Source: an uncultured Dehalococcoidales bacterium
GTDB lineage: Bacteria; Chloroflexota; Dehalococcoidia; Dehalococcoidales; UBA5627
NCBI GenBank assembly: GCA_964528955.1
Contig: CAZGVH010000001.1
Location: 3,606-40,341 of the forward strand
Reading direction: 5' to 3'
Length of the DNA: 36,736 nucleotides
Below the pieces are notes generated by a model that saw only the letters and a list, made by a program, of their open reading frames with translations, ran no database searches and had not been told where the DNA came from. Positions 7,218 through 31,890 of the stretch are shown in pieces; the first letter of the stretch is position 1; every line of letters begins with the position of its first letter. Made by a program: the position numbers and the translations under genes.

Positions 7218-7226
7218 TCTAATATC

Positions 7227-8984: not shown

Positions 8985-9010
8985 GTCAAGATAACTGTTT
9001 GATTATATCA

Positions 9011-13595: not shown

Positions 13596-13651
13596 AGTTT
13601 GTATCCTCCCGTTAATAAATTTTTTAAAATAATACGGCACTTACCGATTCT

Positions 13652-14226: not shown

Positions 14227-14239
14227 TCGATTTGATAAA

Positions 14240-14277
14240 GTAAATAAAAGTAAATATTCAGTAATAATTTGTTAAAT
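14240..14277 (-). promoter_or_regulatory. Four direct heptamer repeats at 10-11-bp spacing (candidate OmpR-family regulator site)
   Basis: Plus strand has GTAAATA (14240), GTAAATA (14250), GTAATAA (14261) and GTTAAAT (14271). The helical-turn phasing is typical of winged-helix response-regulator boxes. Confidence 0.35.
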
Positions 14278-14348
14278 TTATACAGCGCTAGGCTATAAAG
14301 ATACCTGGGTTTTTATTTTAAGCAATATAAGCATATGGGGGATAATTT

Positions 14349-18000: not shown

Positions 18001-18271
18001 CTATCGATTTGCATCCAATGCTATCGTATTTATATAGTCCGCCTCGTCCGCCAATCCACATATAACCATAGTGATCTTTAAATATTGAATACACCTGGTT
18101 ATTAGATACAAATTCGTTAACATCCAGTTTGCTAAATACTATGTCAACATCACTGGATGCTGATTGTGCTTTTAATCCCATATCAGGCATCATTATCAAA
18201 CAATAAGCTAAAATAAAGATAAAAAATATCAGTCTACCAATGTTCATAATGCCTCTGAAATTATTAGTCAT
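15032..18271 (-). CDS. Sensor histidine kinase with a large extracytoplasmic beta-propeller/Y_Y_Y domain, copy A
   Basis: 1079 aa. N-terminal TM, then about 750 aa of repeated blades (...IWxIYEDxxGxLWIGTxxGLN...), a Y_Y_Y-like region (YAYILEGFDTDWQY...YQFKVRA) and a second TM. H-box HELKTPL, N-box LLNNASKFT, G-boxes DNGLGI and GLGIGL. Confidence 0.9.
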   Translation of the reverse strand: MTNNFRGIMNIGRLIFFIFILAYCLIMMPDMGLKAQSASSDVDIVFSKLDVNEFVSNNQVYSIFKDHYGYMWIGGRGGLYKYDSIGCKSIAGFENEVIWSIYEDSRQVLWVGTEAGLFKSDGSTGNFTGYTYNPNNPESINSNIIWDIYEDESGILWIGTDNGLNSLDRETGIFTRYTDDNTNSSSCIVRAIYEDNDKILWIGTNCGLKAFDRKTATLTKYIYEPDNPGSISSNVIWYIYEDSHGVLWICTEDGLNTFDRETGIINRYVHDPDNPASLSDNQIWTVYEDSNGKLWIGTNNGLNTLDRETGIFTRYMYDPNNPESIKNNIIRTIYEDEQGILWFGTRMGVHYINPDLQCFNYYDSVNNIGVRCIYSDINMMVLGTPTSIIWFDYEKDLIQRNFSYSSMNKGIVNGATNSICVDDSGSIWVGTKYLGLIRIDAQTGKYENYSYEEDNPNSLPDNWISSLCYDAEQDLLWIGTVNGLCSFNYQENKFNRYYFDLNNQSSIASNIVNIIYKIKDGDLLFGTDKGLDRLDKENGGFIHYTQDQVEKDFLNYEIICIYEDVNKVLWIGTNEGLVKYDSRNSDFYLYTEKDGLPGNRITGVLGDNYGNIWLMIDYSIVKLSVESKDVIVYGNDHGLRSSAFYSNSISTDKDGLIFIGTSNGLFSFDSNTIPVSTFKPPVLINGFSLINNESISFDKPIEEVKEIKLPYSNNSFIIDFVALDYTSQRDNKYAYILEGFDTDWQYCGPNESFARYTNVNSGEYQFKVRARNIDNFLNEEWTSLKIIISPPFWKEWWFALSCVAVAIAIILLTIYQRIHKVEKYSIELESQVNARTQELIDKSDELKNELNRRVGYTRALIHELKTPLTSMINTSEVLKDVLEEKTKDKMIIDMANTILDGSHALNNRIDQLHDIARGELGMLKLDLRFSDIHQIIIDITKYSTYIFSEKQQKFIIDIPDTLPLIPVDEQRISEVLLNLLNNASKFTQKGGLIILRVINNTDNITIEIEDNGLGINPEIEKNLFQLYNTTSYSNRGLGIGLYLSKMIVELHGGIIWGHNNNKGRGSLFGFSLPLKPGDK

Positions 18272-18667: not shown

Positions 18668-19297
18668 CTATACTTGTTTTGCTATTAAAGCACCAACCGG
18701 ACATTTTTTTACACATTCCATACAGAAATCGCAATGTGCTATAGTCTCGAAGCAAGCAATTTTCGTATCGTATCCCCTGTTAACAAAGTATATATGGCTT
18801 ACGCCGTATATTTTTTCACAGGTTTGAACGCAGATACCACAGCGGACACATTTATCGGGGTCATAGTAAAGAAAAGGTGTTAGTGTTTCAAGGGGCAGTT
18901 TTATATTAGGAAGTCGTAAATTATCTACCCTCCGCCTGTCGATATGGAGATGTGCCATGATTTTCTGTAGCATACATTTTCCATTTGCCGGACATTCACG
19001 ACAGGTAAAGTGGTGATCAGCTATTATAAGTTCAACAATGGGGCGAATCGTCGCATCGATTTTCGGAGTATTTGTTTTAACAATCATCCCATCTTCTGCC
19101 AGTGTGCGGCAAGCCAATACAAGTTTTTCGTCGTCAATTTCAACTATGCATAAACGGCAAACACCGCTGGGAACTAAATCGGCATTATAACAGAGGTGCG
19201 GAATATAAATATTGTTTTCCAGAGCTACCTCCATAATGGTTGCTCTTTTATCGATTTCAAACTGCTGCTCATTTATAGAAAAACGTATCTTACTCAT
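18668..19297 (-). CDS. NuoG/HydA N-terminal-like Fe-S protein ([2Fe-2S] plus His-ligated and two ferredoxin-type [4Fe-4S])
   Basis: 209 aa. CYNADLVPSGVCRLC...ACRT ([2Fe-2S]); HHFTCRECPANGKC; CVRCGICVQTC and CDFCMECVKKCP. No catalytic domain follows. It overlaps the upstream gene by 8 nt. Confidence 0.8.
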   Translation of the reverse strand: MSKIRFSINEQQFEIDKRATIMEVALENNIYIPHLCYNADLVPSGVCRLCIVEIDDEKLVLACRTLAEDGMIVKTNTPKIDATIRPIVELIIADHHFTCRECPANGKCMLQKIMAHLHIDRRRVDNLRLPNIKLPLETLTPFLYYDPDKCVRCGICVQTCEKIYGVSHIYFVNRGYDTKIACFETIAHCDFCMECVKKCPVGALIAKQV

Positions 19298-20987
19298 CGG
19301 ACTTTTCTCCGTTAGTGAGATATTGGCATACGTTTGCCGGGCATTTTTTTTGATTTATATGGGCTTCATATTCATCACGAAAATAACGCAGGGTTGTCAA
19401 AACCGGATTCGGTGCGGTTCGTCCCAGACCGCATAGCGAGGTATTAGCTATGGAGTTGCTTAGTTCGAGAAGCATATCGATATCCGTCTGCTTGCCATGT
19501 CCTTTTGTGATATCGTCCAGAATATTAAACATCTGTTTTGTTCCCAGCCGACAGGGAATGCATTGCCCGCAGGATTCTTGTTGAACAAAATTGAGGAAAA
19601 ACCTTGCCAAATCGACGATACATGTATATTCGTCTAAAACTATCATACCGCCGGAACCCATAATAGAACCTACGGTCGTTAAAGAATTGAAAGACATCGG
19701 CAAGTCTAATAGTTCGGCTGGTAAGCATCCCCCTGAAGGCCCTCCTGTTTGGACTGCTTTAAATCTATTACCATTTAGAACGCCACCGGCGATATCGTAG
19801 ATTATTTTTCGTAGAGTAATCCCCATCGGAACTTCTATCAGTCCTCGATTAGCAACCTTGCCTGTTAGTGCAAATATTGCTGTACCTTTACTACTCCCGG
19901 TTCCGCGGCTGGCAAACCAATGCGCTCCGTTTTTGATAATGGCTGGAATATTAGCCAATGTTTTGACATTATTGATAACGGTTGGTTTTCCCCATAAACC
20001 GCTTTGAGCCGGGTAAGGTGGACGGTGTTGTGGCATTCCTCTATTTCCTTCTATAGAAGCTATTAGCGCTGATTCTTCACCACAGACAAAGGCTCCGGCT
20101 CCTTCTCTTATCTCGATATCGAAACTAAAATCCGAATCAAGTATATTATCACCAAGTAGATGGTATTGGCGCATCTGTTCTATAGCGATTCTTACTCTTT
20201 TAATAGCCAGGGGATATTCATCCCTAATATAAATAAATCCCAGGCTGCATCCAATGGCATAGGCTGCAATGAGCATCCCTTCCAGCACGGAATACGGGTC
20301 GCTTTCCAGAAGCGACCTGTCCATATAGGCTCCGGGGTCCCCTTCATCTGCATTGCATATAATATATTTCGTGGAAGATTCCGACTTACGGCATTCTTTC
20401 CATTTAAAACCGGTGGGGAAACCGGCTCCACCCAACCCTCGTAGTCCAGCTTTTTCTACCTCATCGATAATATCTTCCTGTGAGGTTTGCAAAGCTTTTT
20501 CGAATGCCTTATAGCCCTCAAGCGCAATATAATGAGATATAATCTCAGGGTTAATCACGCCGATATTTTTTAGAACCGTACGTTCCTGATATTTCAAAAA
20601 ATCGATTTCAAAAAGGTTAGGTATGCAATTTATTTCTTGTCCCCATGCGCCGAGTGCGAGGTCGGGACGGCAGTTATCATTTAGCAGATAATCTTTAATA
20701 AGCTCTACAGCTATATCAGAATCAAGATTTTTATAGGTAATACGAGGTTGCCCCGGTTTGATGATATCAACCATCGGCTCGCAATAACACATACCCAGGC
20801 AGCCGGTCTTGTGAATACAGGCTTTAATACAGTTCCTTACCAGGGCGTTTTCTATAGACTGATATACGGATAAGGCGCCGGCAGCTTCACCACAGGTAGC
20901 CATCCCGATAAATATTTGTGGGATGGACGGATTAATAATCTGTTGCCATTCTTTTTCGGCTTTTGTCCTGAAATCTGACAATGTCAT
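19290..20987 (-). CDS. NuoF/HydB-like FMN- and NAD(P)H-binding flavoprotein with an N-terminal thioredoxin-like [2Fe-2S] domain
   Basis: 565 aa. GLRGLGGAGFPTGFKW, ICNADEGDPGAYMDR, ESCGQCIPCRLG, SLCGLGRTAPNPV. Confidence 0.9.
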   Translation of the reverse strand: MTLSDFRTKAEKEWQQIINPSIPQIFIGMATCGEAAGALSVYQSIENALVRNCIKACIHKTGCLGMCYCEPMVDIIKPGQPRITYKNLDSDIAVELIKDYLLNDNCRPDLALGAWGQEINCIPNLFEIDFLKYQERTVLKNIGVINPEIISHYIALEGYKAFEKALQTSQEDIIDEVEKAGLRGLGGAGFPTGFKWKECRKSESSTKYIICNADEGDPGAYMDRSLLESDPYSVLEGMLIAAYAIGCSLGFIYIRDEYPLAIKRVRIAIEQMRQYHLLGDNILDSDFSFDIEIREGAGAFVCGEESALIASIEGNRGMPQHRPPYPAQSGLWGKPTVINNVKTLANIPAIIKNGAHWFASRGTGSSKGTAIFALTGKVANRGLIEVPMGITLRKIIYDIAGGVLNGNRFKAVQTGGPSGGCLPAELLDLPMSFNSLTTVGSIMGSGGMIVLDEYTCIVDLARFFLNFVQQESCGQCIPCRLGTKQMFNILDDITKGHGKQTDIDMLLELSNSIANTSLCGLGRTAPNPVLTTLRYFRDEYEAHINQKKCPANVCQYLTNGEKSDE

Positions 20988-21014
20988 AGTTTACCCCCAG
21001 CAAGGAAACTAAAA

Positions 21015-21740
21015 TTATTCAGGAATTTCCTCTTTTAACCCCGAAATATTAAAAAGTTTTTTTATTTTGTCTGAATTCATTTTTCCGTAAGTTTCGCTAT
21101 TTACGGTCATAACAGGAGCCAGAGCACAACAGCCTACACAAGCAACGGTGTCAAGAGTGTATTCATTGTCTGCAGATGTCTCACTTTCTTTTATCCCCAG
21201 CAGACTTTCTACTTCTCTTGTCAAACCGGGCGCACCGCTTATATGACAGGCAGTTCCTCTGCAAATACAGACATGCTTTCTTCCCGGTGGTTTAAGACGC
21301 AAAGATTTGTAAAAAGAAGCTACCGAACGGATGTGGCCGACAGATAAATTAAGATATCGGGCAATATGGCTAATCATATCTTCCGGTAAGTAGCCAAAAT
21401 TGGATTGGAGTGAGAGCAAAATAGGGATTAAACCGCTTTTGTTACCTCTGTAAAAAGAAAGAACCTTGCCGAATCTGAGATATTTAAACAGAGGGATGCT
21501 CATCGGGCATTCTGCTGTACAGTCACCGCAATCGTTACATTTAGCGATACCGTGTTTTATGCAATCTTCAAAGCGCCCTAATTTAATATCTTCCAAGAGA
21601 ACAGATGGCCAAAGCCCCTTATCGCAAACTTCCATGCATATATTACATTCAATACAGGGATTCTCCCTTATCAATTTTTTATCGTCAGGTTTATCATGCC
21701 GCTTGTTGAAAAAAGAAAAAGCCGTTGCAATTTTGTTCAT
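21015..21740 (-). CDS. NuoE/HydC-like [2Fe-2S] protein with an N-terminal 2x[4Fe-4S] ferredoxin extension
   Basis: 241 aa. CIECNICMEVC and CNDCGDCTAECP, then the NuoE-like segment LLSLQSNFGYLP...VCICRGTACHISG...VACVGCCALAPV. Confidence 0.8.
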   Translation of the reverse strand: MNKIATAFSFFNKRHDKPDDKKLIRENPCIECNICMEVCDKGLWPSVLLEDIKLGRFEDCIKHGIAKCNDCGDCTAECPMSIPLFKYLRFGKVLSFYRGNKSGLIPILLSLQSNFGYLPEDMISHIARYLNLSVGHIRSVASFYKSLRLKPPGRKHVCICRGTACHISGAPGLTREVESLLGIKESETSADNEYTLDTVACVGCCALAPVMTVNSETYGKMNSDKIKKLFNISGLKEEIPE

Positions 21741-21911: not shown

Positions 21912-22976
21912 TTACTCCTTTAAATTAGGAAACTTATCTTTTGCATCTATTTCTTTTTCTCCGGTATATAGACCATATTCAACCAACTCTGATGCCAGTG
22001 CATCACAATAATTGCATTTATTACAGTCTTTCCCACAAGATGTAACTTTTTCAAAAAATCCATATTGCTCTAATAACCTGTTATTCAGGCATATACCGTT
22101 CACCATAGAGTACTGTTCCAAACTTCCAGTTAAAATATCCAACAGGTCTCCATCCCATTTTTCATCCATATATGCCTTTACAGCCCGTATAATCTTACTC
22201 TCCGGGGAAGCTCTGCCAACGATCTTAATAGAACTGGTTATTTCTATATATTTATGCATATCCTCAGGTCTTATCCATCCCGATTTTAATATCTGTGACG
22301 GGTCTTGACGGAATACTTCATTACAATATTTAAAAAACACCGGCTTTTCAGAACCTGTATTTTTAGAAACGTGAGAAATATAATTAATATGGAATTTTCT
22401 GAATGGACAATTACTCAAACATCCTTCATTTACCATCAATTTCAATTTGACGCCGGTTACTTTCTTAATTTCCTTAAGAAGCTCAAGGTCATGATTTATA
22501 CATGGATCCGGTATAATAACGTCTGCTCCCAAATCAGTGAAAATCTCTGCCCGTTTGAGCGAATTGATGTCACATAGTACAGATGCATATATTTCTATAT
22601 CCGGGATGCGATTCTTGATCATGTTAATAAAAATAGGATTGGCGATCGTTACCGATTCCAAACCGTGTTCTTTATGTAACATTTCAATATATTCTACTGT
22701 TTTCTTCTGCATATCGCTGGTATACCAGTCTTCTCCCTCGCAGGTCGAATTCAATAACAGATTAACCTTAAATCCCAATACATGTATCCTCTTGACTATT
22801 AACAGGAAGCTATCCATATCCAGTTTCCCCATAGCTCTACCTGAGGCAAAATATTCCTGAGGACCAGAGAGATAGACCTCGGTTATTTTGTTGCCGCTGC
22901 ATTCATTCATGCTATAGTATTCTGATAAAGTTTTGGCATTCATATTGTAAGGTACTGAAAATTCCAGATTTGTCAT
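21912..22976 (-). CDS. Peptidase-U32-family protein (UbiU/UbiV/TrhP/RlhA-like) with a C-terminal CX3CX2CX2C motif, paralogue 1
   Basis: 354 aa. U32-like collinear blocks: EVYLSGPQEYFASGR, KVNLLLNSTCEG, GLESVTIANPIFINMIKNRIPDIEIYASV, GADVIIPD, LMVNEGCLSNCPFR, IKIVGRASP. C-terminal SCGKDCNKCNYC. AGAGGAG lies 8 nt upstream of the ATG. Confidence 0.65.
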   Translation of the reverse strand: MTNLEFSVPYNMNAKTLSEYYSMNECSGNKITEVYLSGPQEYFASGRAMGKLDMDSFLLIVKRIHVLGFKVNLLLNSTCEGEDWYTSDMQKKTVEYIEMLHKEHGLESVTIANPIFINMIKNRIPDIEIYASVLCDINSLKRAEIFTDLGADVIIPDPCINHDLELLKEIKKVTGVKLKLMVNEGCLSNCPFRKFHINYISHVSKNTGSEKPVFFKYCNEVFRQDPSQILKSGWIRPEDMHKYIEITSSIKIVGRASPESKIIRAVKAYMDEKWDGDLLDILTGSLEQYSMVNGICLNNRLLEQYGFFEKVTSCGKDCNKCNYCDALASELVEYGLYTGEKEIDAKDKFPNLKE

Positions 22977-23045
22977 TTATAATCTCCTCTATAAAAAGTC
23001 TGTCAATGTATGTTCTTTCTTTAATTTAGTATAAACTGCATTTAA

Positions 23046-23720
23046 TTATAGATTACGCGTATTTAATAAATGTTTTTTATGTATAGTCATATTCAGAACC
23101 CAACGCCAGTTCAATACTATATGTATAATTATTATTGAAATGATAGCTACCGCTAACCAGGCATGAATATCAACCCATATATTTCTCTGCAATCCCCAAA
23201 AAGTACGACCTAATCCAATCAGCATATTTTCATAATCAAGTGCACCGCGCGGTAATACTAACCAGATAATAAAACCGGAAAGACAATCCAGTATAAAAAG
23301 AATAAACAATAATAGTGCAGCAATATATTGTTCTATTGCTTTTACCTTTATTATCGGCCAATTAATATAATCCCTAAACTTTCTTGTTAAACTAATGATC
23401 CACTTCCAATGCAGAACAATATGCAGAATTATTATTCCCAAGAGAACTATCGATGCCCAGTTGTGTACGTCTATCCACGTATATCTTGGCCAATTCATTA
23501 TAGTAATGTAGTTTCCGGTAATGCCGTAACCTTCGGCATTGCACCACATATATCCAGAAGCGCTCCCCAGTTCTCCGTGTGCTCCCTGTCCCATGGGAAG
23601 AATAAACCATAATATATAACTGGATACCAAGGTAACCAGGATAGACAACAGTGCTATTACATCCAGCAAGAAGTTAACATATCTTTTAATAATCTTTGCC
23701 ATGTCAATTCCAAAATTCAA
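23046..23720 (-). CDS. DUF4405-like membrane protein (putative cytochrome-b-like), copy B
   Basis: 224 aa, 4 TM. The first motif ILHIVLHWKW is intact; the second reads IIHIVLNWRW (His to Asn). Paralogue of 7227..7892. Confidence 0.65.
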   Translation of the reverse strand: MNFGIDMAKIIKRYVNFLLDVIALLSILVTLVSSYILWFILPMGQGAHGELGSASGYMWCNAEGYGITGNYITIMNWPRYTWIDVHNWASIVLLGIIILHIVLHWKWIISLTRKFRDYINWPIIKVKAIEQYIAALLLFILFILDCLSGFIIWLVLPRGALDYENMLIGLGRTFWGLQRNIWVDIHAWLAVAIISIIIIHIVLNWRWVLNMTIHKKHLLNTRNL

Positions 23721-23764
23721 TAAAGCTAGGACATTATATTTAATGATTCATATCCAAATTAACC

Positions 23765-24583
23765 TTATACCAGCGGGACCCTTAAATTTTCGTGAAATGA
23801 ATCCAGAAAGCTTATATCCTTCTCTGATATAGCGAAGTCAAATATGTCTATATTTTCCCTGATCCTGTCTTCATTCGATGATTTGGGAATTGTTACCAAT
23901 CCTTTTTGAAGCGCCCAACGGATTAGTACCTGAGCAGCAGTTTTATGATACTTCAGTGACAGCAAGACTAATTTTGAATCTGTTAATTTTACTTTTCTTG
24001 TAAGCGGGCAATATGATTCAACTTGTATTTTATGAATTTGGCAGAACTCGAGAAGTTCCTTTTGATAAAAGTAAGGATTAAATTCGACTTGATTAACAGA
24101 AGGAATAACTGAAGAGTTGTCTATCAGATATTCGAGTTGTGGAATGGTATAATTGCTGACACCTATAGCCCTGCATTTACCTTGTTTTAGCAATGTTTCC
24201 ATTGCATTCCAGGTTTCATCAAGCAATTCTTGAGCAGGCCAGTGTATCAAGTAAAGATCGATATAGGAAAGCTTTAATAATTTAAGGCTTCTTTCACAGG
24301 CATTAAGTGTAGATTTGTATCCCTGTTCTGCCGGCCACAATTTGGTAGTGATAAAAATATCTTCTCTCGGTATACAGCTTTTATTGACAGCTGTTCCAAT
24401 ATCCTTTTCATTCTGATATATCATGGCGGTATCGATAAGCCTGTATCCGTTTCTTAGGGAACATAATACTGACTTCTCTGCTACCTCGCCATAGAGTTGC
24501 CAGCTACCGAATCCTATAATAGGCATTTCTACTCCGTTATTAAGTCTTACTCTTGTTTCCGAATTGATTTTATTATTTGACAT
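23765..24583 (-). CDS. Aldo/keto reductase (NAD(P)H-dependent)
   Basis: 272 aa. Catalytic tetrad context LIDTAMIYQNE, ITTKLW, LYLIHWP. Typical AKR length and N-terminal MPIIGFGSWQL. Confidence 0.9.
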   Translation of the reverse strand: MSNNKINSETRVRLNNGVEMPIIGFGSWQLYGEVAEKSVLCSLRNGYRLIDTAMIYQNEKDIGTAVNKSCIPREDIFITTKLWPAEQGYKSTLNACERSLKLLKLSYIDLYLIHWPAQELLDETWNAMETLLKQGKCRAIGVSNYTIPQLEYLIDNSSVIPSVNQVEFNPYFYQKELLEFCQIHKIQVESYCPLTRKVKLTDSKLVLLSLKYHKTAAQVLIRWALQKGLVTIPKSSNEDRIRENIDIFDFAISEKDISFLDSFHENLRVPLV

Positions 24584-24638
24584 TGCATTTTAAAAAAGAA
24601 AGCGTTTTAATAAATTAGTCGTGTATTTATATTTACGG

Positions 24639-25679
24639 TTAATAAACCTCTTCTTTTAATTCTTTTGTATAATGCCTGAATTCAAATAACTTTCTGGATA
24701 ACTCATCGCAATAGTTACATTTATGACATTCTTTATTACAAGAAGTGACTTTTTCGAAAAAACCATACTTATCGAGGCTTTTATTATCCAGATAGACTCC
24801 GTATTGCGAATTGAATACGGCGAAGCTATCACACATTATATCCAGCAGACCGCCTTCCCAACTTTCCTGCATATATGCTTTTATACATCTCATAACCTTG
24901 TTCATCGGAGTGCTTCTTCCAACGATTTTGAAATAGCTAGTTATTTCTCCATATTTTTGGAGATCCTCCGGCCTGATCCAGCAAGACTTTAAAACCTGAG
25001 AAGGATCATGTGCACTTACAGCAACACAATTGTCAAAAAAGATACTCGGCTCATCTTTTACCTCTTTTGAGGCATGTGAAACATAATTAAAATGGAATCT
25101 TCTGAAAGGACACTTGTAGAGGCATCCCTCATTTACCATAGGTTTGATCTTCAGTCCGGTAATATCCTTTATTTCCTTAAGCAGCTTTAAATTCCTGTTA
25201 ATATTCATATCAGGAGTCACAACATCAGCTCCTGCTTTTTTAAAGAGGATAGCTCTCTGAACGCAATCTATCTCAGATAAAACAGAAGCGCAAATTTCCA
25301 GATCGGGAAAATTTTTCCTTATCAATTTCATTAATATGGGATTAACTAAAGTTACTGTTTCTACACCGTAGTCCCCATGCGCTTTTGCCAGGTATTCCAT
25401 GATTTTTTTTACAGTCTTCATGGAATACCAGTCGCTGCCTTCGCAGGTAGTATTCATTACCAGGTTTACGCGTAATCCATTGTGATGAATCTTTTTTACG
25501 GTCTCTATGAATCTATCCATTCCCTGCATAGCGGTAATTCTCCCCGATCCGGAATATTCCTGCGGGCCTGAAAGATATACCTCTCTGATTCTATTGTTAT
25601 TCAGGTTTTTGGATTTAAATATTTCATTCAATGTTGCGGGGTCATCATTATAAGGAATAGAAAATTCCAAATTGGCCAT
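24639..25679 (-). CDS. Peptidase-U32-family protein with a C-terminal CX3CX2CX2C motif, paralogue 2
   Basis: The track ORF starts at a TTG (25694). The ATG at 25679 follows GGGGGGAA and aligns with the paralogue start (MANLEFSIPYN vs MTNLEFSVPYN). Same U32 blocks, and C-terminal SCNKECHKCNYC. Confidence 0.65.
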   Translation of the reverse strand: MANLEFSIPYNDDPATLNEIFKSKNLNNNRIREVYLSGPQEYSGSGRITAMQGMDRFIETVKKIHHNGLRVNLVMNTTCEGSDWYSMKTVKKIMEYLAKAHGDYGVETVTLVNPILMKLIRKNFPDLEICASVLSEIDCVQRAILFKKAGADVVTPDMNINRNLKLLKEIKDITGLKIKPMVNEGCLYKCPFRRFHFNYVSHASKEVKDEPSIFFDNCVAVSAHDPSQVLKSCWIRPEDLQKYGEITSYFKIVGRSTPMNKVMRCIKAYMQESWEGGLLDIMCDSFAVFNSQYGVYLDNKSLDKYGFFEKVTSCNKECHKCNYCDELSRKLFEFRHYTKELKEEVY

Positions 25680-25758
25680 TTTATTTCCCCCCAATTTTTA
25701 TTTTAAACAAAGCCTTAGGGCTCAGTTGAACAAGCAATTTAATTTATGACTATTAACT

Positions 25759-27297
25759 CTATTTAGTATTCAAAGTATCCGGGTTGATTCGATAATTCAT
25801 CTCATCCTTTTGCAGATGATAGCGCATATTTTCCGATTCGGATTTACTACAAATTCCATATTTTTCCATAAGATCAATCGAATTTCCTATTGAATTGTTA
25901 ATCGACTTTATAATCATGTTCCTGTTAAGACAGGCTGTTTCATAGGATATCCATTGGTACCATGAGTTAAAAGACATACCACTGACATAATCTTCCAGAT
26001 TCTTGAATCTTAATCGATAGCCGTACTTGTCCGGATAGTCGAAGGCCTGAGAGCCGGGGTCGAGCAGAATCATAGGCCCGAACGAATACATTGCCGGCGC
26101 TCTCCCCGGAGTTTTACTGTTTAATTTACAGATTTCCTCCCATACCTCCCAGTTCTTTTTTATAGTATCAGGTGTATCTTTTGCCAGAGCTATCATCGAG
26201 AAAACAGCGATGGCAATATTGTATTTCTTGCAGAGCCTGATCGTATCAAAAAGCTCCACGTTTGAATACTTCCTGCCGTGTGCCCCTCTTACGCTTTCCA
26301 CACAAGACTCCGGAGAAATAGTCAGCACCAAAGGCACTCGAATTTTTGACAATTCCCTTATATATTCCTCATCTGCCGGTCCCCATATTTCCATAGTCAG
26401 TTGGGTTAAATTTATCCTGGTATTCTGAAGAGTCTGCATAAGTTTAATCCAGTATTCCCTGCCACCCATGCGCGGATCCTGGAAAAGAAAAATCTGCTTA
26501 ATTCCCTGGTCACTGAGTTTTTTTATGTCCTGAGCTATCTTATCGGGACTTCTGAAAGCCGGACAGATTCTTCCAAAGTACCTCTTATAGCTATATCTGG
26601 AACCACCGCAGGTAACACAGTTGTGAGTACAACCGCGGCAAACCGGTATTGACCAGTGGGAGGGCGAATTTTTCGGAAATAATGCATGTTTGGGCTCTAT
26701 AAGGTCAAGCCGGGTAAATTCGTATTCATCGATACTGGTATTGGGAAGCAATAAGTCATTTATTATTATCTCTCCATTGCTGTCCCTGAAGGTAAGGCTG
26801 GGAACATTTTCGAGTCCGTCATTCTTTTCTAAGGCTTTCATCAGTTCCAGAAACGGTTTCTCTGCTTCTCCACGTATAACTGCATCTATAAAATCATATT
26901 TCCGAATAATCTCTTCAGCGAAAATACTGGAGGTTAGCCCTCCGAGAATAACCATGGAATGCGGATGCAGTTTTTTTAGCAGCTTTGCAACCTCTATGGC
27001 TCCCTGGGAATGTACACACCAGTGCAGTTCAACAGCAAATACCCGCGATTCAAGTGCTCTTAGATAACTCTCAACGTCAAATCCGTTATCTGCCATCATC
27101 CTGTCCCCAAGATTATCGACAATTACTTTATAGCCGTTTCGGTCAAGGTAATCTGCAATACTGAGCATACCGATTGATGGGATAATAAACTGGCGTGTAC
27201 TCTCCTGCACAGTTAAAGCTATTGGCCCTTCATTTATGACTTTTTTACGGAAGTCATAGATTGACGGCGGATGTATTAAAACGGCGTCATAATTCAC
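25759..27297 (-). CDS. B12-binding-domain-type radical SAM protein, subfamily unknown
   Basis: 512 aa. GTG start 8 nt after AAGGA. N-terminal AVLIHPPSIYDFRKKV...IIPSIGMLSIADYLDRNGYKVIVDNL. Cluster loop CRGCTHNCVTCGGS. Confidence 0.75.
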   Translation of the reverse strand: MNYDAVLIHPPSIYDFRKKVINEGPIALTVQESTRQFIIPSIGMLSIADYLDRNGYKVIVDNLGDRMMADNGFDVESYLRALESRVFAVELHWCVHSQGAIEVAKLLKKLHPHSMVILGGLTSSIFAEEIIRKYDFIDAVIRGEAEKPFLELMKALEKNDGLENVPSLTFRDSNGEIIINDLLLPNTSIDEYEFTRLDLIEPKHALFPKNSPSHWSIPVCRGCTHNCVTCGGSRYSYKRYFGRICPAFRSPDKIAQDIKKLSDQGIKQIFLFQDPRMGGREYWIKLMQTLQNTRINLTQLTMEIWGPADEEYIRELSKIRVPLVLTISPESCVESVRGAHGRKYSNVELFDTIRLCKKYNIAIAVFSMIALAKDTPDTIKKNWEVWEEICKLNSKTPGRAPAMYSFGPMILLDPGSQAFDYPDKYGYRLRFKNLEDYVSGMSFNSWYQWISYETACLNRNMIIKSINNSIGNSIDLMEKYGICSKSESENMRYHLQKDEMNYRINPDTLNTK

Positions 27298-27409: not shown

Positions 27410-27973
27410 TTAATTTTTACCGATGATTCTGTTGCGGAATATACCCAGTAAAAATACTATTGCACCTGAAGCAACAGCAAGCCAGTAACCTATAAGCAAA
27501 TACCCATAGGCATTAGCTACCATTTCTCCACCCAGGTCAATAAGTGTAGTACCTAACAGTTTCATATAGTAAAAGTCTCCGGTCCTTATGGCCGCAACAA
27601 TTACTGCCAACGCAGCAACAACTAAATATGAAAATCCGACAAATGTTATAAGAAAACTGGGCAAGGTTGTTTTTATCTTCCAAAGCTTTATTTCTTTATT
27701 TTTAAGGAATAAGCTGATGACTAATGCGGCGACCGCTAATATCAGATATGTCCACATTAACGGTGCAAAAAAAGCAGGCATATCAGCATTTTTTACAAAT
27801 GCTAGTACTTCCTCTGGCATGTTTAATTCAAGAGTCCAGGGACGTATAACAGCTGCGTTCTCGCCGATAGTCTCAATAGTCGCACTCCACCATGGTTGGA
27901 ACCATGAAAATAAAAGTAAACCAACACCGGCTGATAAAAGAAGCCTGAATATCCAAATCCTTGCATTTCCCAT
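27410..27973 (-). CDS. Putative membrane subunit of molybdoenzyme B (novel, His-free)
   Basis: 187 aa, about 5 TM. N-terminus ARIWIFRLLLSAGVGLLLFSWFQPWW is homologous to 8324..8902. No His residue. Confidence 0.6.
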   Translation of the reverse strand: MGNARIWIFRLLLSAGVGLLLFSWFQPWWSATIETIGENAAVIRPWTLELNMPEEVLAFVKNADMPAFFAPLMWTYLILAVAALVISLFLKNKEIKLWKIKTTLPSFLITFVGFSYLVVAALAVIVAAIRTGDFYYMKLLGTTLIDLGGEMVANAYGYLLIGYWLAVASGAIVFLLGIFRNRIIGKN

Positions 27974-28004
27974 AATTAAATACCTCTTTAATTTAATTTG
28001 TATC

Positions 28005-28040
28005 GGGGTGAGGGTGGATAACCAGTTTAACCCTCACCCC
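28005..28040 (-). other. Intra-operon hairpin between the Fe-S subunit and anchor genes (copy B)
   Basis: GGGGTGAGGGT (28005..28015) pairs with ACCCTCACCCC (28030..28040), with a 14-nt loop. Confidence 0.5.
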
Positions 28041-28073
28041 ATACCATATTGCTCTCTTATTTAATTAAGATAG

Positions 28074-28886
28074 CTAAGCCAGTGCGATATCTCCCAGATT
28101 GACGTCTTTTTCAGTATTGATATCGCTGATTGTTTTACTCTTGCCGGCAGCATCAATCTTTACACTGTAGCTGCCTACTGCTATGCCTTCGAACCAGAAA
28201 TCACCGAAGTCGTCGGTTGTGGCTGTCGCAGACCCGTCTCCTGAAAGGGTAACGGTACCACCGATAATAACTTCCTTCGTAGCCGGGTCGTATACTGTAC
28301 CGGCAATAAATCTCTTGGGCATATTCAGATAATACATCCTCGGTTTAGTATTGTATTCAGGATGCAAAACCTCTCCGGCAGCAATCTTGCTGCTGAAATC
28401 TGCCTCTTCGCCAAATTGGAGGGCATAATGATAACATGCATCAACACATCTGGGCTCTTTAATAGGCCAGCCTCTATCCAGAAGATGAGCACAGCCGGTA
28501 CATTTTTGAGCAATGTTCAAGTTATCATTAAAGTAGATATTGCTATAGGGGCAGTTATCTATACATAACTTACAACCCGTGCACAGTTTGGGATCTATCC
28601 ATACTATTCCGTCATTACGACGAACTATTGCATCTACCGGGCAATTCTCCAAACAGGGTGCATCTTCACAGTTATTACACTTAACAGGATAGCAATATAC
28701 TTTTACCTTGGGTGAGTTACCGACAGTACCGCGAACATTTTCATTCACCTTGATCCAGAACTGCCCTATCTCAGGCTGTGGCTTGGCATATGGCGTCCAG
28801 TCATTTCCGCAATGCTCATCCTTGCAGGCAATCTGGCACATACGGCATCCAATACATAATCCAACATCATGAACAAAAACTTTCAC
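28074..28886 (-). CDS. Four-cluster Fe-S subunit (BthL-like), copy B
   Basis: 270 aa. All four Cys groups are intact (CIGCRMCQIAC, CNNCEDAPCLENC, CTGCKLCIDNC, CTGC...CVDAC). Same C-terminal beta-sandwich-like domain. The GTG start overlaps the alpha stop (TAGTG). Confidence 0.85.
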   Translation of the reverse strand: MKVFVHDVGLCIGCRMCQIACKDEHCGNDWTPYAKPQPEIGQFWIKVNENVRGTVGNSPKVKVYCYPVKCNNCEDAPCLENCPVDAIVRRNDGIVWIDPKLCTGCKLCIDNCPYSNIYFNDNLNIAQKCTGCAHLLDRGWPIKEPRCVDACYHYALQFGEEADFSSKIAAGEVLHPEYNTKPRMYYLNMPKRFIAGTVYDPATKEVIIGGTVTLSGDGSATATTDDFGDFWFEGIAVGSYSVKIDAAGKSKTISDINTEKDVNLGDIALA

Positions 28887-31813
28887 TATTCTCCTCCTTC
28901 CTCTAACCAGGCTTCGAGTCTTCTACCTGCAGCCGGGTCGTATGCCCTCTTAAAGGCATCAGGGTAATCTCTCCTCCACTCGTCCATCATCTCGCCAGTG
29001 ACTTTTTCAATCTCTACAAGGTAACCGGTAACATATAATCCCATAGCGTTAGGAGAAATGCCGTTGGGACAGATAGTGTTGTTCTCACCGCCCCTGTCAA
29101 GTACACCTGGAATGATGTAATCTGTCTGGGCGCCGTGTTCCATTGCAACTACACCTTGCATAGTTCTCTCCCAGACTTTAGCCGCACCGAGTATAGCACC
29201 ACGGTCATTGAATATCTTAATAATGTCGCCGTCCTTGATACCTCTTGCCTCGGCATCAGCCGGGTTCATCTGTACTGGCTCATACCAGTATCCATCCCAG
29301 CCTTCTATCTTGGACAATTCTCTGAGCCAGGGGATATCGTCATGCTGAGAGTGATAGCGCCATTTCGGAGTGTTGGAAATCATCTGCAGAGGATAAGTCT
29401 GAGCTTTCTTGCCGGTACGGTATTCATCATAGAAATACCCTTCACCACCGGGAATCCAATGTGCCAGCGGAGGCCTGTCTTTATCATCGGGGAAGTTTTC
29501 AGCTAATCCGGTACTCCAGAACTCAAGAAGACCGGTTGGCGTTGCCAGAGGATTCTTTACCGGGTCATCATAGAATTTCTGGGAAGCCGGTGTCCTCTTA
29601 GCTGCATCTGGATGTAATCCTATTATATAATAGCCCCTTTCGTTCAATTCTTCCCAGGTTACTACATCGGTCATACCGCTTGTATCGTAAGCTTCTTTAA
29701 CCCACTCGTCAATAGTTTTTCCGCCGGTCCATTTATCGTAAAAGTCCAGTTTTTTAGCCAGTTCACCGACTATTTCATAATCGGACATGGATTCTCCGAT
29801 ACTCTTAATAGCCGGCTTTTCCAGACACCATACACCGTAATCCTCACTTGAAGTATTCATGTCGTATTCTTCAAGTTTAGTATTAACCGGCAAGACGATG
29901 TCGGAATAAAAGCAGGTGTCCTGCCACCACTGGTGTTGAGTTACCACGCATTCTAGAATATCCTCTTGATGAGCCCTGAATCTGTTGTTGCCATCATCAG
30001 TACTCTCAGTGTTGCTGGCGCCTTCCCACCACATGAATCTCACAGGAGACTTGTCCTGCCATGGGTATTCGAACTGCTGGAACTGGCGAGTCCTGTTGCC
30101 ACGGGTACCGCCGCCATACCAGGTTACCTTGGGATCACCCTCTCTCCAGGCAAAGCACCTTGAGATATCGGGGGAATGCATTAACGGTCTTTCTTCCACC
30201 TTAGGTATTGATAATCCTTCGGCCTTCATCAGCTCCGGGAAACGTCCTGACATGACTCCTTCTTTAGCCATCGGGCTTACCTTGTCATAAGAAGGGGACT
30301 TGGCAAAACTAGGTGTTCTAAGCGGGTTGGTGCACTGGTGTACACCAGGTTTACCCCATCCCTGCATACCCAGCAGATACCATTCCATTCTCATGGCTTC
30401 AGTTGAATATCCGCCGCGGCAGAGGCCGCCGCCGTGAGTCTGGGCAAATGATGCTCTACTATGTTTACCCCAGTATCTTGCCAGGGCTTTAATGGTCCAC
30501 TCAGGGGTTCCGCAAATTGAGGCAGCCCATGCGGGGGTTTTAGGAATACCATCCTCATCACCCATAACATAAGCCTGCCATTTATCAAAACCATGTACAT
30601 GTGTGGCTACATACTCTTTATCATAGGTATCTTCGGTAATCCAGATATAAGCTATTGCCAGCATCATACATGGATCGGAGTTCGGATAAATAGTTATCCA
30701 TTTATCTGCCCAGTAACCGGTGCCTGTATTACAATCAGGGCTGATAAATATACATGGAATACCAAGCTTTTTAACCCAGTAAGTACTGTAACCTCTTCTC
30801 ATTCCATCATTTTTACACCAGGCTTTGGTTACATTATCGCATCCCCAGTAAAGCATAAGCTCGCAGTTGGCAGAGATGTCTCCCCAAAAATTAGCATCCG
30901 ACTCTTCACCGAACATTTCAATTGCATTAACATGCTTGGCACCCCAGGCTGTTCCTTCCCAGCTATATGGGCTACGCATGGCTTCTGTATAATGTTGGCC
31001 GTATGTAGCTTGTGACCAGTAATGCAGGAATGCGCTGGTAGTATAATGATAGCCATGAATAGTCTTCAATTCACCATGAGCCGGGCAGAATGTACAAAGA
31101 GCTGCCGGACCGTATTTATCAGCAATTCTCTTCATTTCACCGGATACTATTGTTGTAGCTTCCTCCCATGAAATCCTCTTATACTTGCTGATACCGCGAT
31201 TTTGGGCATTTCTTTTTGCCGGATCACCACCGGGTTCCCAGTCAACTCTCTTTAACGGATATAATATCCTGCGGGGTGAGTAGGTACGTCTCTTATATCC
31301 GGCACCCAGCGGCGCCAAACATGATTTTTTGTGTGAGGTCCATGTCTGTCCGCGGGCTTCCCATGTCCATGGCTGGAAATTGGGGTCCTCATCAAAATGA
31401 ATTGGCCTGACTCTGACTATTTTGCCGTTTTTAACATCTACACATGCAGGCGACTCTAGGGCTTTAATAACTGTCTCTTCCGGCTCTAATGCCGGTTCGA
31501 TTGAACCACCGCCGCCACCTGTCGTTACTGTTTTGGTCTCGGTAACTGTAACCGCACCAGTTCCACCTACTGTTTTAGTCTCGGTTACCGTAGCACCTGA
31601 ACCGCCAACAGTTGTTGTAACTGTTTTTTCAACTGTTTTTGTAGTTTCAACGGTTTTAGTGGTTTCTCCTCCGCCGCAACCGGATAATAGTCCAGCCCCA
31701 ATAGCACCACCGACAACTACCGTTCCGGCACCTACAAGAAAATCTCTTCTTGAGACTTCACCGGATTGTTTCTTTTCTTCTCTCACTGATGTTTTTTCTT
31801 CTTCGTTTTTCAA
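28886..31813 (-). CDS. TAT-exported lipoprotein molybdopterin catalytic subunit, transhydroxylase (AthL)-like, copy B
   Basis: 975 aa. SRRDFLVG twin-arginine motif. Lipobox LLSGC (Cys46, codon 31678..31676). About 65-aa T/V/G/E/K linker. No FS0 Cys motif. YSWEGTAWG matches the segment I recall as carrying the Mo-ligand Ser175 in P. acidigallici AthL (DSWEGWHWG). TTG start after GGAG. Confidence 0.8.
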   Translation of the reverse strand: MKNEEEKTSVREEKKQSGEVSRRDFLVGAGTVVVGGAIGAGLLSGCGGGETTKTVETTKTVEKTVTTTVGGSGATVTETKTVGGTGAVTVTETKTVTTGGGGGSIEPALEPEETVIKALESPACVDVKNGKIVRVRPIHFDEDPNFQPWTWEARGQTWTSHKKSCLAPLGAGYKRRTYSPRRILYPLKRVDWEPGGDPAKRNAQNRGISKYKRISWEEATTIVSGEMKRIADKYGPAALCTFCPAHGELKTIHGYHYTTSAFLHYWSQATYGQHYTEAMRSPYSWEGTAWGAKHVNAIEMFGEESDANFWGDISANCELMLYWGCDNVTKAWCKNDGMRRGYSTYWVKKLGIPCIFISPDCNTGTGYWADKWITIYPNSDPCMMLAIAYIWITEDTYDKEYVATHVHGFDKWQAYVMGDEDGIPKTPAWAASICGTPEWTIKALARYWGKHSRASFAQTHGGGLCRGGYSTEAMRMEWYLLGMQGWGKPGVHQCTNPLRTPSFAKSPSYDKVSPMAKEGVMSGRFPELMKAEGLSIPKVEERPLMHSPDISRCFAWREGDPKVTWYGGGTRGNRTRQFQQFEYPWQDKSPVRFMWWEGASNTESTDDGNNRFRAHQEDILECVVTQHQWWQDTCFYSDIVLPVNTKLEEYDMNTSSEDYGVWCLEKPAIKSIGESMSDYEIVGELAKKLDFYDKWTGGKTIDEWVKEAYDTSGMTDVVTWEELNERGYYIIGLHPDAAKRTPASQKFYDDPVKNPLATPTGLLEFWSTGLAENFPDDKDRPPLAHWIPGGEGYFYDEYRTGKKAQTYPLQMISNTPKWRYHSQHDDIPWLRELSKIEGWDGYWYEPVQMNPADAEARGIKDGDIIKIFNDRGAILGAAKVWERTMQGVVAMEHGAQTDYIIPGVLDRGGENNTICPNGISPNAMGLYVTGYLVEIEKVTGEMMDEWRRDYPDAFKRAYDPAAGRRLEAWLEEGGE

Positions 31814-31890
31814 TTATTTCTCCTTTCATAGATTCTCGTTAAGATGCAATAAAATTCTGTATAGACATCACCCCCTTTTTAAATAAACTA

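Follow-up and report, generated by a model that had tools for sequence, protein, structure and literature searches.

Why should two proteins of the U32 superfamily, known from RNA modification and ubiquinone synthesis, be encoded amid the genes of a molybdoenzyme and its redox proteins? The question is raised by a 36,736-nucleotide stretch of DNA from an uncultured Dehalococcoidales bacterium (GenBank assembly GCA_964528955.1, contig CAZGVH010000001.1), referred to here as the window, in which two U32 genes, U32-A and U32-B, lie in one run of minus-strand genes. We use U32L for the clade that holds both proteins and L001-L090 as labels for the loci compared. Judged from sequence, U32L is a distinct clade of the U32 superfamily with at least 1,145 clusters at 50% identity. 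Its conserved core is a U32L gene beside an oxidoreductase whose cofactors may be of any of four unrelated kinds; most of these partners bear signals for twin-arginine translocation (Tat), and a radical S-adenosylmethionine (SAM) enzyme often joins them. In fold and probable chemistry U32L belongs to the U32 family; the predicted two-cluster architecture and the association with these cassettes appear to be new, and our literature search found no description of a U32 protein with a second four-cysteine motif or with links to molybdenum (Mo) or tungsten (W) enzymes, Tat substrates or B12-dependent radical SAM enzymes. The two genes and their motifs are located as follows.

21912..22976, minus strand: U32-A, a U32L protein of 354 amino acids with an ATG start (PF01136, 32.5 bits; AlphaFold model; tree)
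24639..25679, minus strand: U32-B, a U32L protein of 346 amino acids with an ATG start (PF01136, 28.0 bits; 53% identity to U32-A; tree)
22005..22037, minus strand: C-terminal four-cysteine motif of U32-A, CGKDCNKCNYC (C314, C318, C321, C324; translation)
24708..24740, minus strand: C-terminal four-cysteine motif of U32-B, CNKECHKCNYC (translation)
22407..22421, minus strand: CLSNC of U32-A (C186, C190), within NEGCLSNCPFR (translation; conservation; model)
25110..25124, minus strand: CLYKC of U32-B (C186, C190), within NEGCLYKCPFR (translation; conservation)
22212-22232, minus strand: SIKIVGR of U32-A (translation)
24915-24935, minus strand: YFKIVGR of U32-B (translation)

Family, fold and cysteine sets

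A first reading of this DNA, made from its letters and open reading frames (ORFs) and called here the sequence-only reading, had described a collinear pair of U32 paralogues, and the two proteins are indeed 53% identical end to end (E = 7e-139) and both significant matches to Peptidase_U32 (PF01136, gathering score 22.4 bits), U32-B matching the profile in its N-terminal third only. The strings it had quoted (IKIVGR, NEGCLSNCPFR/NEGCLYKCPFR and the tails) were re-derived by translation, and the aldo-keto reductase and DUF4405 genes that it had placed between the paralogues were recovered by profile search (PF00248, 165 bits; PF14358, 68.8 bits). Neither U32-A nor U32-B has a signal peptide. 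An alternative TTG start five codons upstream would extend U32-B to 24639..25694; public gene calls take the 346-residue form. U32-A has an orthologue of 83% identity in locus L005, and the closest named relative, at 83% identity, is from a Dehalococcoidales metagenome-assembled genome (MAG). The AlphaFold model, built with 43 homologues, predicts that a (beta-alpha)8 barrel leads into a helical C-terminal domain, with a predicted local distance difference test (pLDDT) score of 85.7 and a predicted template modelling (pTM) score of 0.88. A Foldseek search of the PDB with this model placed the U32 protein MK0906 (5D88) first (E = 2.4e-11, target-normalised TM-score 0.71), the other matches being generic triosephosphate isomerase (TIM) barrels, and 5D88 was also the top PDB sequence match (E = 4e-7). 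By hidden Markov model (HMM) and predicted fold, U32-A and U32-B are members of the U32 superfamily.

Conservation was assessed in an alignment of 82 full-length U32L members from Chloroflexota, Acidobacteriota, Desulfobacterota, Coriobacteriia and several archaeal lineages, with a median pairwise identity of 51%. C79, C186 and C190 are conserved in 100% of these sequences and C218, C314, C318, C321 and C324 in 96% each, and eight cysteines are common to both paralogues, not those of the tail alone. About 36 positions, many of them polar, are at least 98% conserved across paralogues with very different partners. The barrel cysteines are spaced C79-x106-C186-x3-C190-x27-C218; in the model C186 and C190 come straight after strand beta-7 and C79 a few residues after beta-3, and we propose that all four sit on or near the C-terminal face of the barrel, where they would hold a barrel-face cluster. 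Segment 184-230 is modelled with low confidence, which we interpret as a cofactor-binding loop modelled without its cofactor.

The second set of cysteines forms the tail, with which both proteins had been said to end. The motif is real, but it does not stand at the extreme C-terminus, as 30 residues follow it in U32-A and 22 in U32-B. Its pattern, C-x3/4-C-x2-C-x-[YFH]-C, is found in 118 of 120 close homologues (the best 120 of 664 matches to U32-A in a word-indexed search, all at least 50% identical) and in 127 of 150 distant cluster representatives, many of the tail-less exceptions being short, apparently fragmentary sequences. In the model it lies in the helical C-terminal domain, off the barrel, and a Pfam scan of the isolated tails at E = 10 returned no family that covers it. 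Because both cysteine quartets are conserved, we infer that each U32L protein would bind two [4Fe-4S] clusters.

The tail begins C-x3-C-x2-C, the spacing of radical SAM enzymes, and could be read as a site that binds SAM and generates a radical, much as ThiC generates a radical with a C-terminal cluster. The TIM-barrel fold, the constant association with radical SAM enzymes and a weak match to CofH would fit a non-canonical enzyme of this kind. The CofH match, however, is at chance level (E = 0.0085) and was the only result of an NCBIfam scan of U32-A and U32-B, which returned no model for U32L, and PF04055 (radical SAM) matched neither the whole proteins nor their isolated tails, even at E = 10. 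The fourth conserved cysteine would moreover take the iron needed free for SAM, the spacing before the second cysteine is x3 or x4, and the motif is in a separate helical domain, not in the barrel. We consider a radical-SAM-like function very improbable.

Relation to characterised U32 proteins

U32 proteins have been proposed to be O2-independent hydroxylases with [4Fe-4S] clusters and prephenate as oxygen donor (PMC6747719, PMC10990095, PMC11574389). In the chemistry proposed, a two-electron oxidation of the aromatic ring is quenched by hydroxide released from prephenate, with an electron acceptor that was not identified (PMC10990095), and direct in vitro hydroxylase activity had not yet been demonstrated in the literature of 2019-2024 (PMC10990095, PMC11574389). 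The clusters of U32 oxidases are bound by CX6CX15CX3/4C and that of UbiV by CXnCX12CX3C (PMC6747719, PMC11574389), and no U32 group of Kimura et al. 2017, who distinguished twelve including U32#1-#6, is described with eight conserved cysteines (PMC6747719).

We compared U32-A and U32-B with UbiU, UbiV, TrhP and RlhA of Escherichia coli, taken from the K-12 record. The best BLASTP match, to RlhA, reached E = 4e-6 over 60 residues, whereas matches within the group of UbiU, TrhP and RlhA reach E = 1e-32 to 1e-43; a U32L HMM scored at most 17 bits on the four E. coli proteins, and hhalign gave the U32L family a 2% probability against UbiU. A pattern search found CX6CX15CX3/4C in TrhP and RlhA and in neither U32-A nor U32-B. 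The U32L-type tail, which the sequence-only reading had thought undescribed, is absent from all four E. coli proteins and goes without mention in the U32 motif surveys (PMC6747719, PMC11574389). Because similarity is marginal and the canonical cysteine motif absent, U32-A and U32-B are placed, by sequence, outside the RNA-hydroxylase and ubiquinone clades and are not orthologues of UbiU, UbiV, TrhP or RlhA. A joint alignment with UbiU and UbiV left only P9, Y35, L230, E238, D239 and K251 as shared columns, among them E238 and D239 of the RPED motif and K251 of KIVGR. When the family alignment was compared as a profile with UbiU and UbiV of E. coli, the match was weak and confined to the N-terminal half of the barrel, which made it unusable for mapping cluster ligands.

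These distances bear on whether U32L could be an ordinary housekeeping U32 protein, that is, an RNA or ubiquinone hydroxylase or a collagenase-type peptidase, that sits in the operon by chance. Databases label such proteins 'U32 family peptidase' or 'collagenase-like PrtC', and one distant U32L fused to a TPR extension adjoins mnmE, both of which favour this account. It is opposed by the position outside the UbiU/TrhP/RlhA group, by the presence of several copies per genome and by a context conserved in at least five phyla; in addition, no UbiT/SCP2-type or other ubiquinone-pathway gene occurs among the annotated neighbours or the scanned window proteins, and no protease catalytic motif is known for the family. 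Of the accounts weighed here this is the least probable.

Genomic context of U32L

An exhaustive search of 50%-identity cluster representatives returned 1,710 at E <= 1e-3, 1,145 at <= 1e-10 and 196 at <= 1e-30, and U32L is widespread in anaerobes of sediment, soil and gut. A scan of one genome per species gave 196 relatives, and 79 distinct loci were examined, their ORFs being taken from a simple ORF caller and clustered by BLAST, and recurrent clusters annotated by Pfam and PDB searches. Of the 61 loci that have at least eight ORFs, 48 encode a Mo/W-pterin or flavoprotein oxidoreductase no more than five ORFs away from U32L, usually on the same strand and directly adjoining. The partner classes counted were the dimethyl sulfoxide (DMSO)-reductase, xanthine-dehydrogenase and aldehyde-oxidoreductase families and the fumarate-reductase-like flavoproteins.

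Four types of context recur. In Dehalococcoidales, Anaerolineae and one Bathyarchaeota MAG, a sensor kinase and regulators are followed by transhydroxylase-type alpha and beta subunits, the membrane protein TM187 and U32L, often with a TIGR04190-like B12 radical SAM enzyme, an FMN_bind lipoprotein and NapH-like polyferredoxins. The second type, from Dehalococcoidales, Acidobacteriota and Desulfatiglandales, has the 2Fe-2S, Mo and flavin adenine dinucleotide (FAD) subunits of the xanthine-dehydrogenase family and then U32L, which TM187 and an unassigned 370-residue protein ('c9') sometimes precede. Methanohalarchaeum and some Dehalococcoidales pair an aldehyde:ferredoxin oxidoreductase-type enzyme with U32L and in some loci add an Fe-S protein; Coriobacteriia (Adlercreutzia, Raoultibacter, Enterorhabdus and gut MAGs) place U32L after a LuxR-type membrane regulator and a fumarate-reductase-like flavoprotein, often with a multihaem cytochrome c. 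Twin-arginine motifs were found in most of the xanthine-dehydrogenase-type 2Fe-2S subunits examined, in most flavoproteins, in the alpha subunit of the window and in an Fe-S protein of L067 that adjoins an aldehyde oxidoreductase; in the partners from Dehalococcoidales and Coriobacteriia a lipobox usually follows the motif.

In a neighbour-joining tree, U32L proteins group by partner type across phyla: the aldehyde-oxidoreductase-linked proteins of Methanohalarchaeum and Dehalococcoidales fall together, U32-B groups with the copies of L009 and the Bathyarchaeota locus L018, which are linked to DMSO-reductase-family and B12 radical SAM enzymes, and U32-A and its L005 orthologue form a separate long, divergent branch. 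The context is kept across at least five phyla, and the linkage of U32L to oxidoreductase cassettes, most of them Tat-signalled, and to radical SAM enzymes is established as tight and phylogenetically coherent. The five-part cluster of the sequence-only reading fared less well: all of its parts are present here, but they are not a conserved unit, as none of the 79 related loci has the aldo-keto reductase, 2 of them have DUF4405 and 8 of 74 a second U32L copy. More frequent companions are the TIGR04190-like B12 radical SAM enzyme, beside U32L in 8 related loci, TM187, after alpha/beta or xanthine-dehydrogenase-type genes in 13, and NuoE/F-like genes, which besides this window occur in 10, all from Acidobacteriota.

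Such a context suggests that U32L, with or without the radical SAM enzyme, could be a maturase that modifies the co-encoded oxidoreductase, or a peptide or cofactor for it, in the cytoplasm before Tat export, for example by hydroxylating or methylating an aromatic residue. Anaerobic sulfatase-maturating enzymes and the enzymes that modify methyl-coenzyme M reductase offer analogies. Signal-less U32L is encoded directly after the structural genes of Tat-signalled enzymes whose cofactors fall into four unrelated classes; where a genome has many cassettes (at least six loci in MAG R103_7, at least five in CAXXST), each has one U32L copy; U32L clades track partner type; archaeal loci pair U32L with SPASM-type radical SAM enzymes; cassettes come without further catabolic enzymes; and active-site residues are near-invariant across paralogues. 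On the other side, a U32 protein acting on a protein is without precedent, the partners share no fold or sequence, Tat signals aside, that a conserved pocket could recognise, and some U32L loci, such as L031, have non-exported partners with a transporter gene. Evidence of both kinds from the window and from fused relatives is given below; taking all of it together, we regard a maturase as rather unlikely.

The same neighbourhoods would also suit a protein that has lost catalysis and serves as an electron-transfer or structural subunit, either as a two-cluster wire or dock on the cytoplasmic face of a membrane conduit or co-exported by hitch-hiking on the Tat subunit. Both cysteine sets have four members, so both clusters could be fully ligated, U32L stands beside Fe-S, flavin or haem electron-transfer proteins, and in several Acidobacteriota loci it follows Tat-signalled 2Fe-2S and FAD subunits with no Mo large subunit adjacent. 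A wire would have no need of the preserved ligand pocket to which the roughly 36 residues of at least 98% conservation point, these including the U32-wide RPED and KxxGR and several Asn, Arg and His residues; a TIM barrel of 350 residues would be an uncommon choice for electron transfer alone, and distant relatives are fused to cytoplasmic enzymes (radical SAM, chorismate-utilising). We hold this account to be improbable.

Several details of the loci are recorded here in their own right. Acidobacteriota loci L028, L032 and L038 have Tat-signal 2Fe-2S and CoxM-like FAD subunits directly before U32L and an FkbM-type methyltransferase after it, and in L024, L039 and L051 the ORF calls recover only the FAD subunit near U32L. 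None of these six loci has an adjacent Mo large subunit; the opposite strand carries a NuoEF-like module with a further 2Fe-2S/FAD pair, and L028 and L038 also encode a MoaD-like protein with a GG tail. Small proteins of 70-79 residues ('c30') with a conserved RTTIGLK..TK..LD..RAPGQCYDGF motif are encoded between regulators and xanthine-dehydrogenase-type genes (L055 2676-3474, three in tandem; L001 5380-5598; L067 4364-4597). They were considered as precursors of peptides made on ribosomes and modified after translation (RiPPs) and rejected, as the TTIGLK..TK..LD motif resembles, by eye, that of ribbon-helix-helix regulators. ORF clusters c29, c25, c14, c39, c40 and c55, from high-GC Coriobacteriia and Acidobacteriota, are mostly spurious antisense ORFs and were ignored.

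Genes around U32-A and U32-B

All genes of the region are on the minus strand in the ORF list. From 31813 down to 18668, eleven ORFs form a run of ~13 kb whose ten junctions range from an 8-nt overlap to a 171-nt gap, with a two-component sensor system upstream; the order is alpha, beta, TM187, B12 radical SAM, U32-B, aldo-keto reductase, DUF4405, U32-A, NuoE-like, NuoF-like and NuoG-N-terminal-like. This order is identical in three independent public assemblies, which rules out an assembly artefact.

33229-36504, minus strand: Reg_prop/Y_Y_Y sensor histidine kinase
32520-33200, minus strand: OmpR-type response regulator
31891-32277, minus strand: receiver-only protein
28886-31813, minus strand: molybdoenzyme alpha subunit, pyrogallol-transhydroxylase type (AhtL-like_1st (PF21423), Molybdopterin, Molydop_binding; 4V4C_A, E = 6e-111)
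28074-28886, minus strand: Fe-S beta subunit with a C-terminal CarboxypepD_reg-like domain (PF13620; 4V4C_B, E = 4.5e-48)
27410-27973, minus strand: TM187, multi-pass membrane protein of 187 amino acids (no Pfam family)
25759-27297, minus strand: B12-binding radical SAM enzyme of 512 amino acids, TIGR04190-like (PF02310 and PF04055; TIGR04190, 396.8 bits)
23765-24583, minus strand: aldo-keto reductase, DkgA-like (PF00248; DkgA model 248 bits, below cut-off)
23046-23702 (ATG, the likelier start) or -23720, minus strand: DUF4405 membrane protein (PF14358)
18668-21740, minus strand: flavin/Fe-S module of three proteins linked to nicotinamide adenine dinucleotide (NAD(H)) (Pfam/NCBIfam-type searches)
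21015-21740, minus strand: NuoE-like protein with an N-terminal ferredoxin domain
19290-20987, minus strand: NuoF-like protein
18668-19297, minus strand: protein resembling only the N-terminal Fe-S part of NuoG

The sequence-only reading had named a molybdoenzyme of hydroxyl-transferring type as a neighbour, and full-length matches agree with it. The best solved relative of the alpha subunit is the large subunit of pyrogallol-phloroglucinol transhydroxylase (4V4C_A, residues 121-942) and that of the beta subunit is 4V4C_B (residues 4-268, full length), which by sequence makes this enzyme one of the pyrogallol-transhydroxylase type. The alpha subunit starts ...GEVSRRDFLVGAG...LLSGCGGG and, because this contains a Tat motif (SRRDFLVGAG) and a lipobox (LSGC), is predicted to be exported and lipid-anchored. 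A low-complexity linker rich in Thr, Val and Gly follows the signal (alpha residues ~45-110, ~31480-31680) and gives rise to a long spurious antisense ORF at 31422-31886 on the plus strand; Dehalococcoidales loci show a linker of this kind behind the Tat signals of their xanthine-dehydrogenase-type small subunits.

The B12-type radical SAM neighbour was likewise as described, both PF02310 and PF04055 being present. Its 396.8 bits to TIGR04190 fall short of the cut-off of 500, as do the 272-391 bits of orthologous U32L neighbours elsewhere, and by sequence it is a sister group of TIGR04190 (Ta0216-type) and not a member; a PDB sequence search with it returned no match. TIGR04190 may correspond to the archaeal ring synthases of glycerol dialkyl glycerol tetraethers (GDGTs); a review confirms just that GrsA/GrsB belong to the B12 radical SAM enzymes, not their tie to TIGR04190. 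In the DUF4405 protein there are two repeats, each with paired His residues, and a cytochrome b561 match of 22.4 bits, below threshold; it is likely a di-haem cytochrome b-type membrane subunit.

A second, paralogous cassette that has no U32L gene occupies 3219-18271 of the window, on the minus strand.

15032-18271, minus strand: Y_Y_Y kinase
14349-15035 and 13652-14032, minus strand: two regulators
12807-13640, minus strand: DUF2202-rubredoxin fusion
9820-12663, minus strand: transhydroxylase-type alpha subunit
9011-9820, minus strand: beta subunit
8324-8902, minus strand: TM187 paralogue
7227-7892, minus strand: DUF4405 paralogue
6837-7217, minus strand: DUF7670 protein
4654-6786, minus strand: B12 radical SAM enzyme of 710 amino acids, RiPP C-methyltransferase-like (TIGR03975, 124 bits; C-terminal PqqD domain)
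3219-4670, minus strand: NlpC/P60 protein with an InlB B-repeat

This cassette speaks both for and against a maturase. The PqqD domain of its B12 radical SAM enzyme, encoded in a molybdoenzyme cassette, suggests a peptide or protein substrate. A 710-residue relative of that enzyme, a RiPP-type B12 C-methyltransferase, adjoins U32L in L009, which together with the PqqD domain, a RiPP recognition element (RRE), of the equally long paralogue here would fit modification of a peptide or of the oxidoreductase. The cassette nevertheless has a transhydroxylase-type enzyme and no U32L, and this enzyme type is thus not strictly dependent on it; precursor-peptide ORFs sought in the intergenic gaps of the window yielded no convincing candidate, one ORF of 81 residues being membrane-protein-like.

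Elsewhere in the window, an Rfam scan of its whole length for riboswitches such as those for Mo cofactor, B12 and SAM gave as sole match a T-box leader (RF00230, 99.6 bits) far from the cluster, at 1528-1801 on the minus strand, upstream of a 462-residue pyridoxal phosphate (PLP)-dependent enzyme (PALP) at 10-1398; a PhzF-family protein is encoded at 1895-2773. A scan for promoters and terminators gave the same counts as in shuffled sequence and was uninformative. G+C content is 0.46-0.53 in both molybdoenzyme alpha genes (window 9000-12000 and 28000-31500) and in the first 2 kb, against ~0.35 elsewhere, which could reflect composition bias of those genes or separate origins.

Fusions and links to aromatic metabolism

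Fusions were sought among the 50%-cluster representatives. One of them, a protein of 924 residues in L084, joins U32L to Anth_synt_I_N, Chorismate_bind and chorismate mutase (CM_2) domains; the gene immediately upstream, which overlaps its start, encodes a glutamine amidotransferase, and the two genes together occupy 2586-5953. We take this arrangement to be like the PabA/PabB/PapB route to 4-amino-4-deoxyprephenate, and by that analogy some U32-like domains may use the amino analogue of prephenate. One U32L is fused to a B12-binding radical SAM enzyme and one to a plain radical SAM domain, the latter preceded by a double radical SAM protein; extensions of TPR or DUF2621 type occur in others. 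Locus L086 (1-9449) has a radical SAM-SPASM gene, a fusion of an aromatic prenyltransferase (PTase_Orf2) with radical SAM-SPASM and a HemN-like radical SAM gene, and after them three U32L-DUF2621 genes in tandem; the whole resembles a gene cluster for making an aromatic compound or peptide that is prenylated, hydroxylated and methylated. The chorismate-enzyme fusions and the prenyltransferase neighbour indicate small-molecule chemistry, which counts against a maturase.

The gene for 3-deoxy-D-arabino-heptulosonate 7-phosphate (DAHP) synthase, the first enzyme of the shikimate pathway, adjoins U32L in L003 and L005 and lies nearby in L022 and L081. When all loci were searched for chorismate mutase, chorismate-binding domains and DAHP synthase, only DAHP synthase recurred (4 loci), and because of this the link to prephenate is weak.

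Proposed function and its significance

In the working model that we tentatively favour, U32L would be a U32-type enzyme with two clusters that oxidises or hydroxylates its target without O2, its tail cluster passing electrons on to the redox partners encoded with it. Of the two [4Fe-4S] clusters predicted for each protein, that of the barrel would be catalytic, at a position homologous to the cluster of UbiU, TrhP and RlhA, and would take two electrons from an aromatic ring or hydroxylate it, in either case without O2, or would catalyse the opposite reaction, a reductive dehydroxylation. The oxygen donor would probably be a prephenate-type cyclohexadiene, as proposed for the characterised U32 enzymes. 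The tail cluster would join the active site to the redox proteins encoded alongside, in the window the NuoEFG-like module and NAD(H), whose genes stand directly downstream of U32-A, and possibly the chain of cytochrome b and beta subunit. A relay of this kind would explain why U32L genes keep company with cassettes rich in electron-transfer proteins.

The candidate targets are an aromatic small molecule and the exported enzyme itself. With the sequence-only reading, we infer hydroxylation of an aromatic or quinone-like molecule, and lean cautiously, short of conviction, to a low-flux phenolic or quinone-like small molecule tied to the transhydroxylase-type enzyme, for instance as a polyhydroxybenzene co-substrate, a mediator or a product; this molecule would also be tailored by the B12 radical SAM enzyme. 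Four observations favour a small molecule: U32L occurs fused to chorismate enzymes, it has prenyltransferase and methyltransferase genes as neighbours, this locus encodes an aldo-keto reductase, and transhydroxylase-type enzymes act in polyphenol chemistry. Bulk catabolic hydroxylation is unlikely if prephenate is consumed stoichiometrically.

A number of observations weigh against the two-cluster hydroxylase model. Similarity to the characterised hydroxylases is marginal, as the RlhA match and the hhalign result show, and in the absence of CX6CX15CX3/4C the transfer of U32 chemistry to U32L is an extrapolation by analogy. The tie to prephenate consists of one fusion protein and two to four DAHP-synthase neighbourhoods. 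The main partner is predicted to be exported and U32L is signal-less, so that both may never meet the same small molecule; the joint pathway of all enzymes envisaged by the sequence-only reading is weakened, at least in its simple cytoplasmic version, by the Tat signal and lipobox of the molybdoenzyme. Most cassettes are minimal: beyond U32L and the oxidoreductase they encode membrane or electron-conduit proteins and, in some cases, a radical SAM enzyme, but no further enzymes of catabolism, and several of the partner radical SAM enzymes are of peptide-modifying kinds (SPASM, or RiPP-type with PqqD), which would fit maturation at least as well. Finally, the near-invariance of the ~36 residues argues against cassette-specific substrates, unless these residues bind a common co-substrate.

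One specific form of maturation deserves mention in this light. In it, U32L would add a hydroxyl group to an aromatic residue, either in the exported oxidoreductase or in a small peptide, and the radical SAM enzyme would methylate or cross-link that residue; the outcome, reached without oxygen and before Tat export, would be a quinone-type cofactor or modification. We think this distinctly unlikely; if true, the system would be the anaerobic counterpart of the O2-dependent biogenesis of pyrroloquinoline quinone (PQQ), cysteine tryptophylquinone (CTQ) and topaquinone (TPQ), and U32L the first U32 enzyme shown to act on a protein. A maturase of whatever form would represent a new kind of anaerobic protein modification.

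No enzymes other than U32 proteins are known to have been proposed as hydroxylases of aromatic rings that work without O2 and draw the oxygen from an organic donor, prephenate. U32L has a built-in second four-cysteine site and adjacent redox partners (NuoEF-like modules, 2Fe-2S/FAD subunits, Fe-S beta subunits, cytochromes), and if the two-cluster hydroxylase model is true, candidate electron acceptors for U32 chemistry can be named and that chemistry extends beyond RNA and ubiquinone. U32L would then be an accessory component, so far unrecognised, of the many uncharacterised Mo, W and flavin reductases or hydroxylases that are exported in Dehalococcoidia, Acidobacteriota, Desulfobacterota and gut Coriobacteriia, enzymes that are implicated in the transformation of polyphenols and xenobiotics.

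Comparison with known systems

UbiU and UbiV share with U32L the Pfam family and the TIM-barrel superfamily, and are Fe-S proteins with cysteine ligands in the barrel, as is predicted for the U32L cluster. UbiU C169, its first signature cysteine, aligns beside U32L C186, the E-D and K..GR motifs are common to both, and the two paralogues are encoded in one operon, as in this window. Sequence similarity is nonetheless insignificant (E = 0.7 or worse), and the ligand patterns differ, being CX6CX16CX38C in UbiU and CXnCX12CX3C in UbiV (PMC6747719) as against C-x106-C-x3-C-x27-C in U32L. U32L has the extra C-terminal four-cysteine motif, usually occurs as a single copy (66 of 74 loci) and lies among oxidoreductases, most of them Tat-signalled, and radical SAM enzymes, not ubi genes.

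TrhP, which forms ho5U in tRNA, and RlhA, which forms ho5C2501 in 23S rRNA, have the U32 domain, give the best, though marginal, pairwise matches and are presumed to be prephenate-dependent, O2-independent hydroxylases. Both carry CX6CX15CX3C, which U32L has not, both are without a U32L-type tail, and both are single housekeeping genes not linked to cassettes. RlhA (L090 11782-13743) does have a C-terminal cysteine quartet of its own (C572, C580, C611, C614), with spacing unlike that of the U32L tail.

MK0906 of Methanopyrus kandleri (5D88), the only solved U32 structure, is the closest to U32L in both sequence and fold. The cysteine equivalent to U32L C79 aligns with one in the TCAGC segment of MK0906. 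Identity is 17%, the aligned region has no counterpart of the NEGC-x3-C cysteines, and the alignment stops before the tail.

The molybdoenzyme of the window resembles AthL/BthL of Pelobacter acidigallici (4V4C) in both subunits, including the AhtL N-terminal domain and the C-terminal beta-barrel domain of the beta subunit. The Pelobacter transhydroxylase is a cytoplasmic soluble heterodimer, and we know of no U32 or radical SAM partner for it. The window enzyme differs in having a Tat signal, a lipobox and a Thr-rich linker, along with a co-encoded TM187 and cytochrome b-like protein.

The anaerobic sulfatase-maturating radical SAM enzymes are cassette-encoded cytoplasmic maturases of exported enzymes. 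Their fold and family are unrelated to those of U32L, for whose partner enzymes no such modification is known. What they have in common with U32L, by analogy and not by homology, is a signal-less Fe-S enzyme encoded beside each copy of an exported enzyme, with several such copies per genome.

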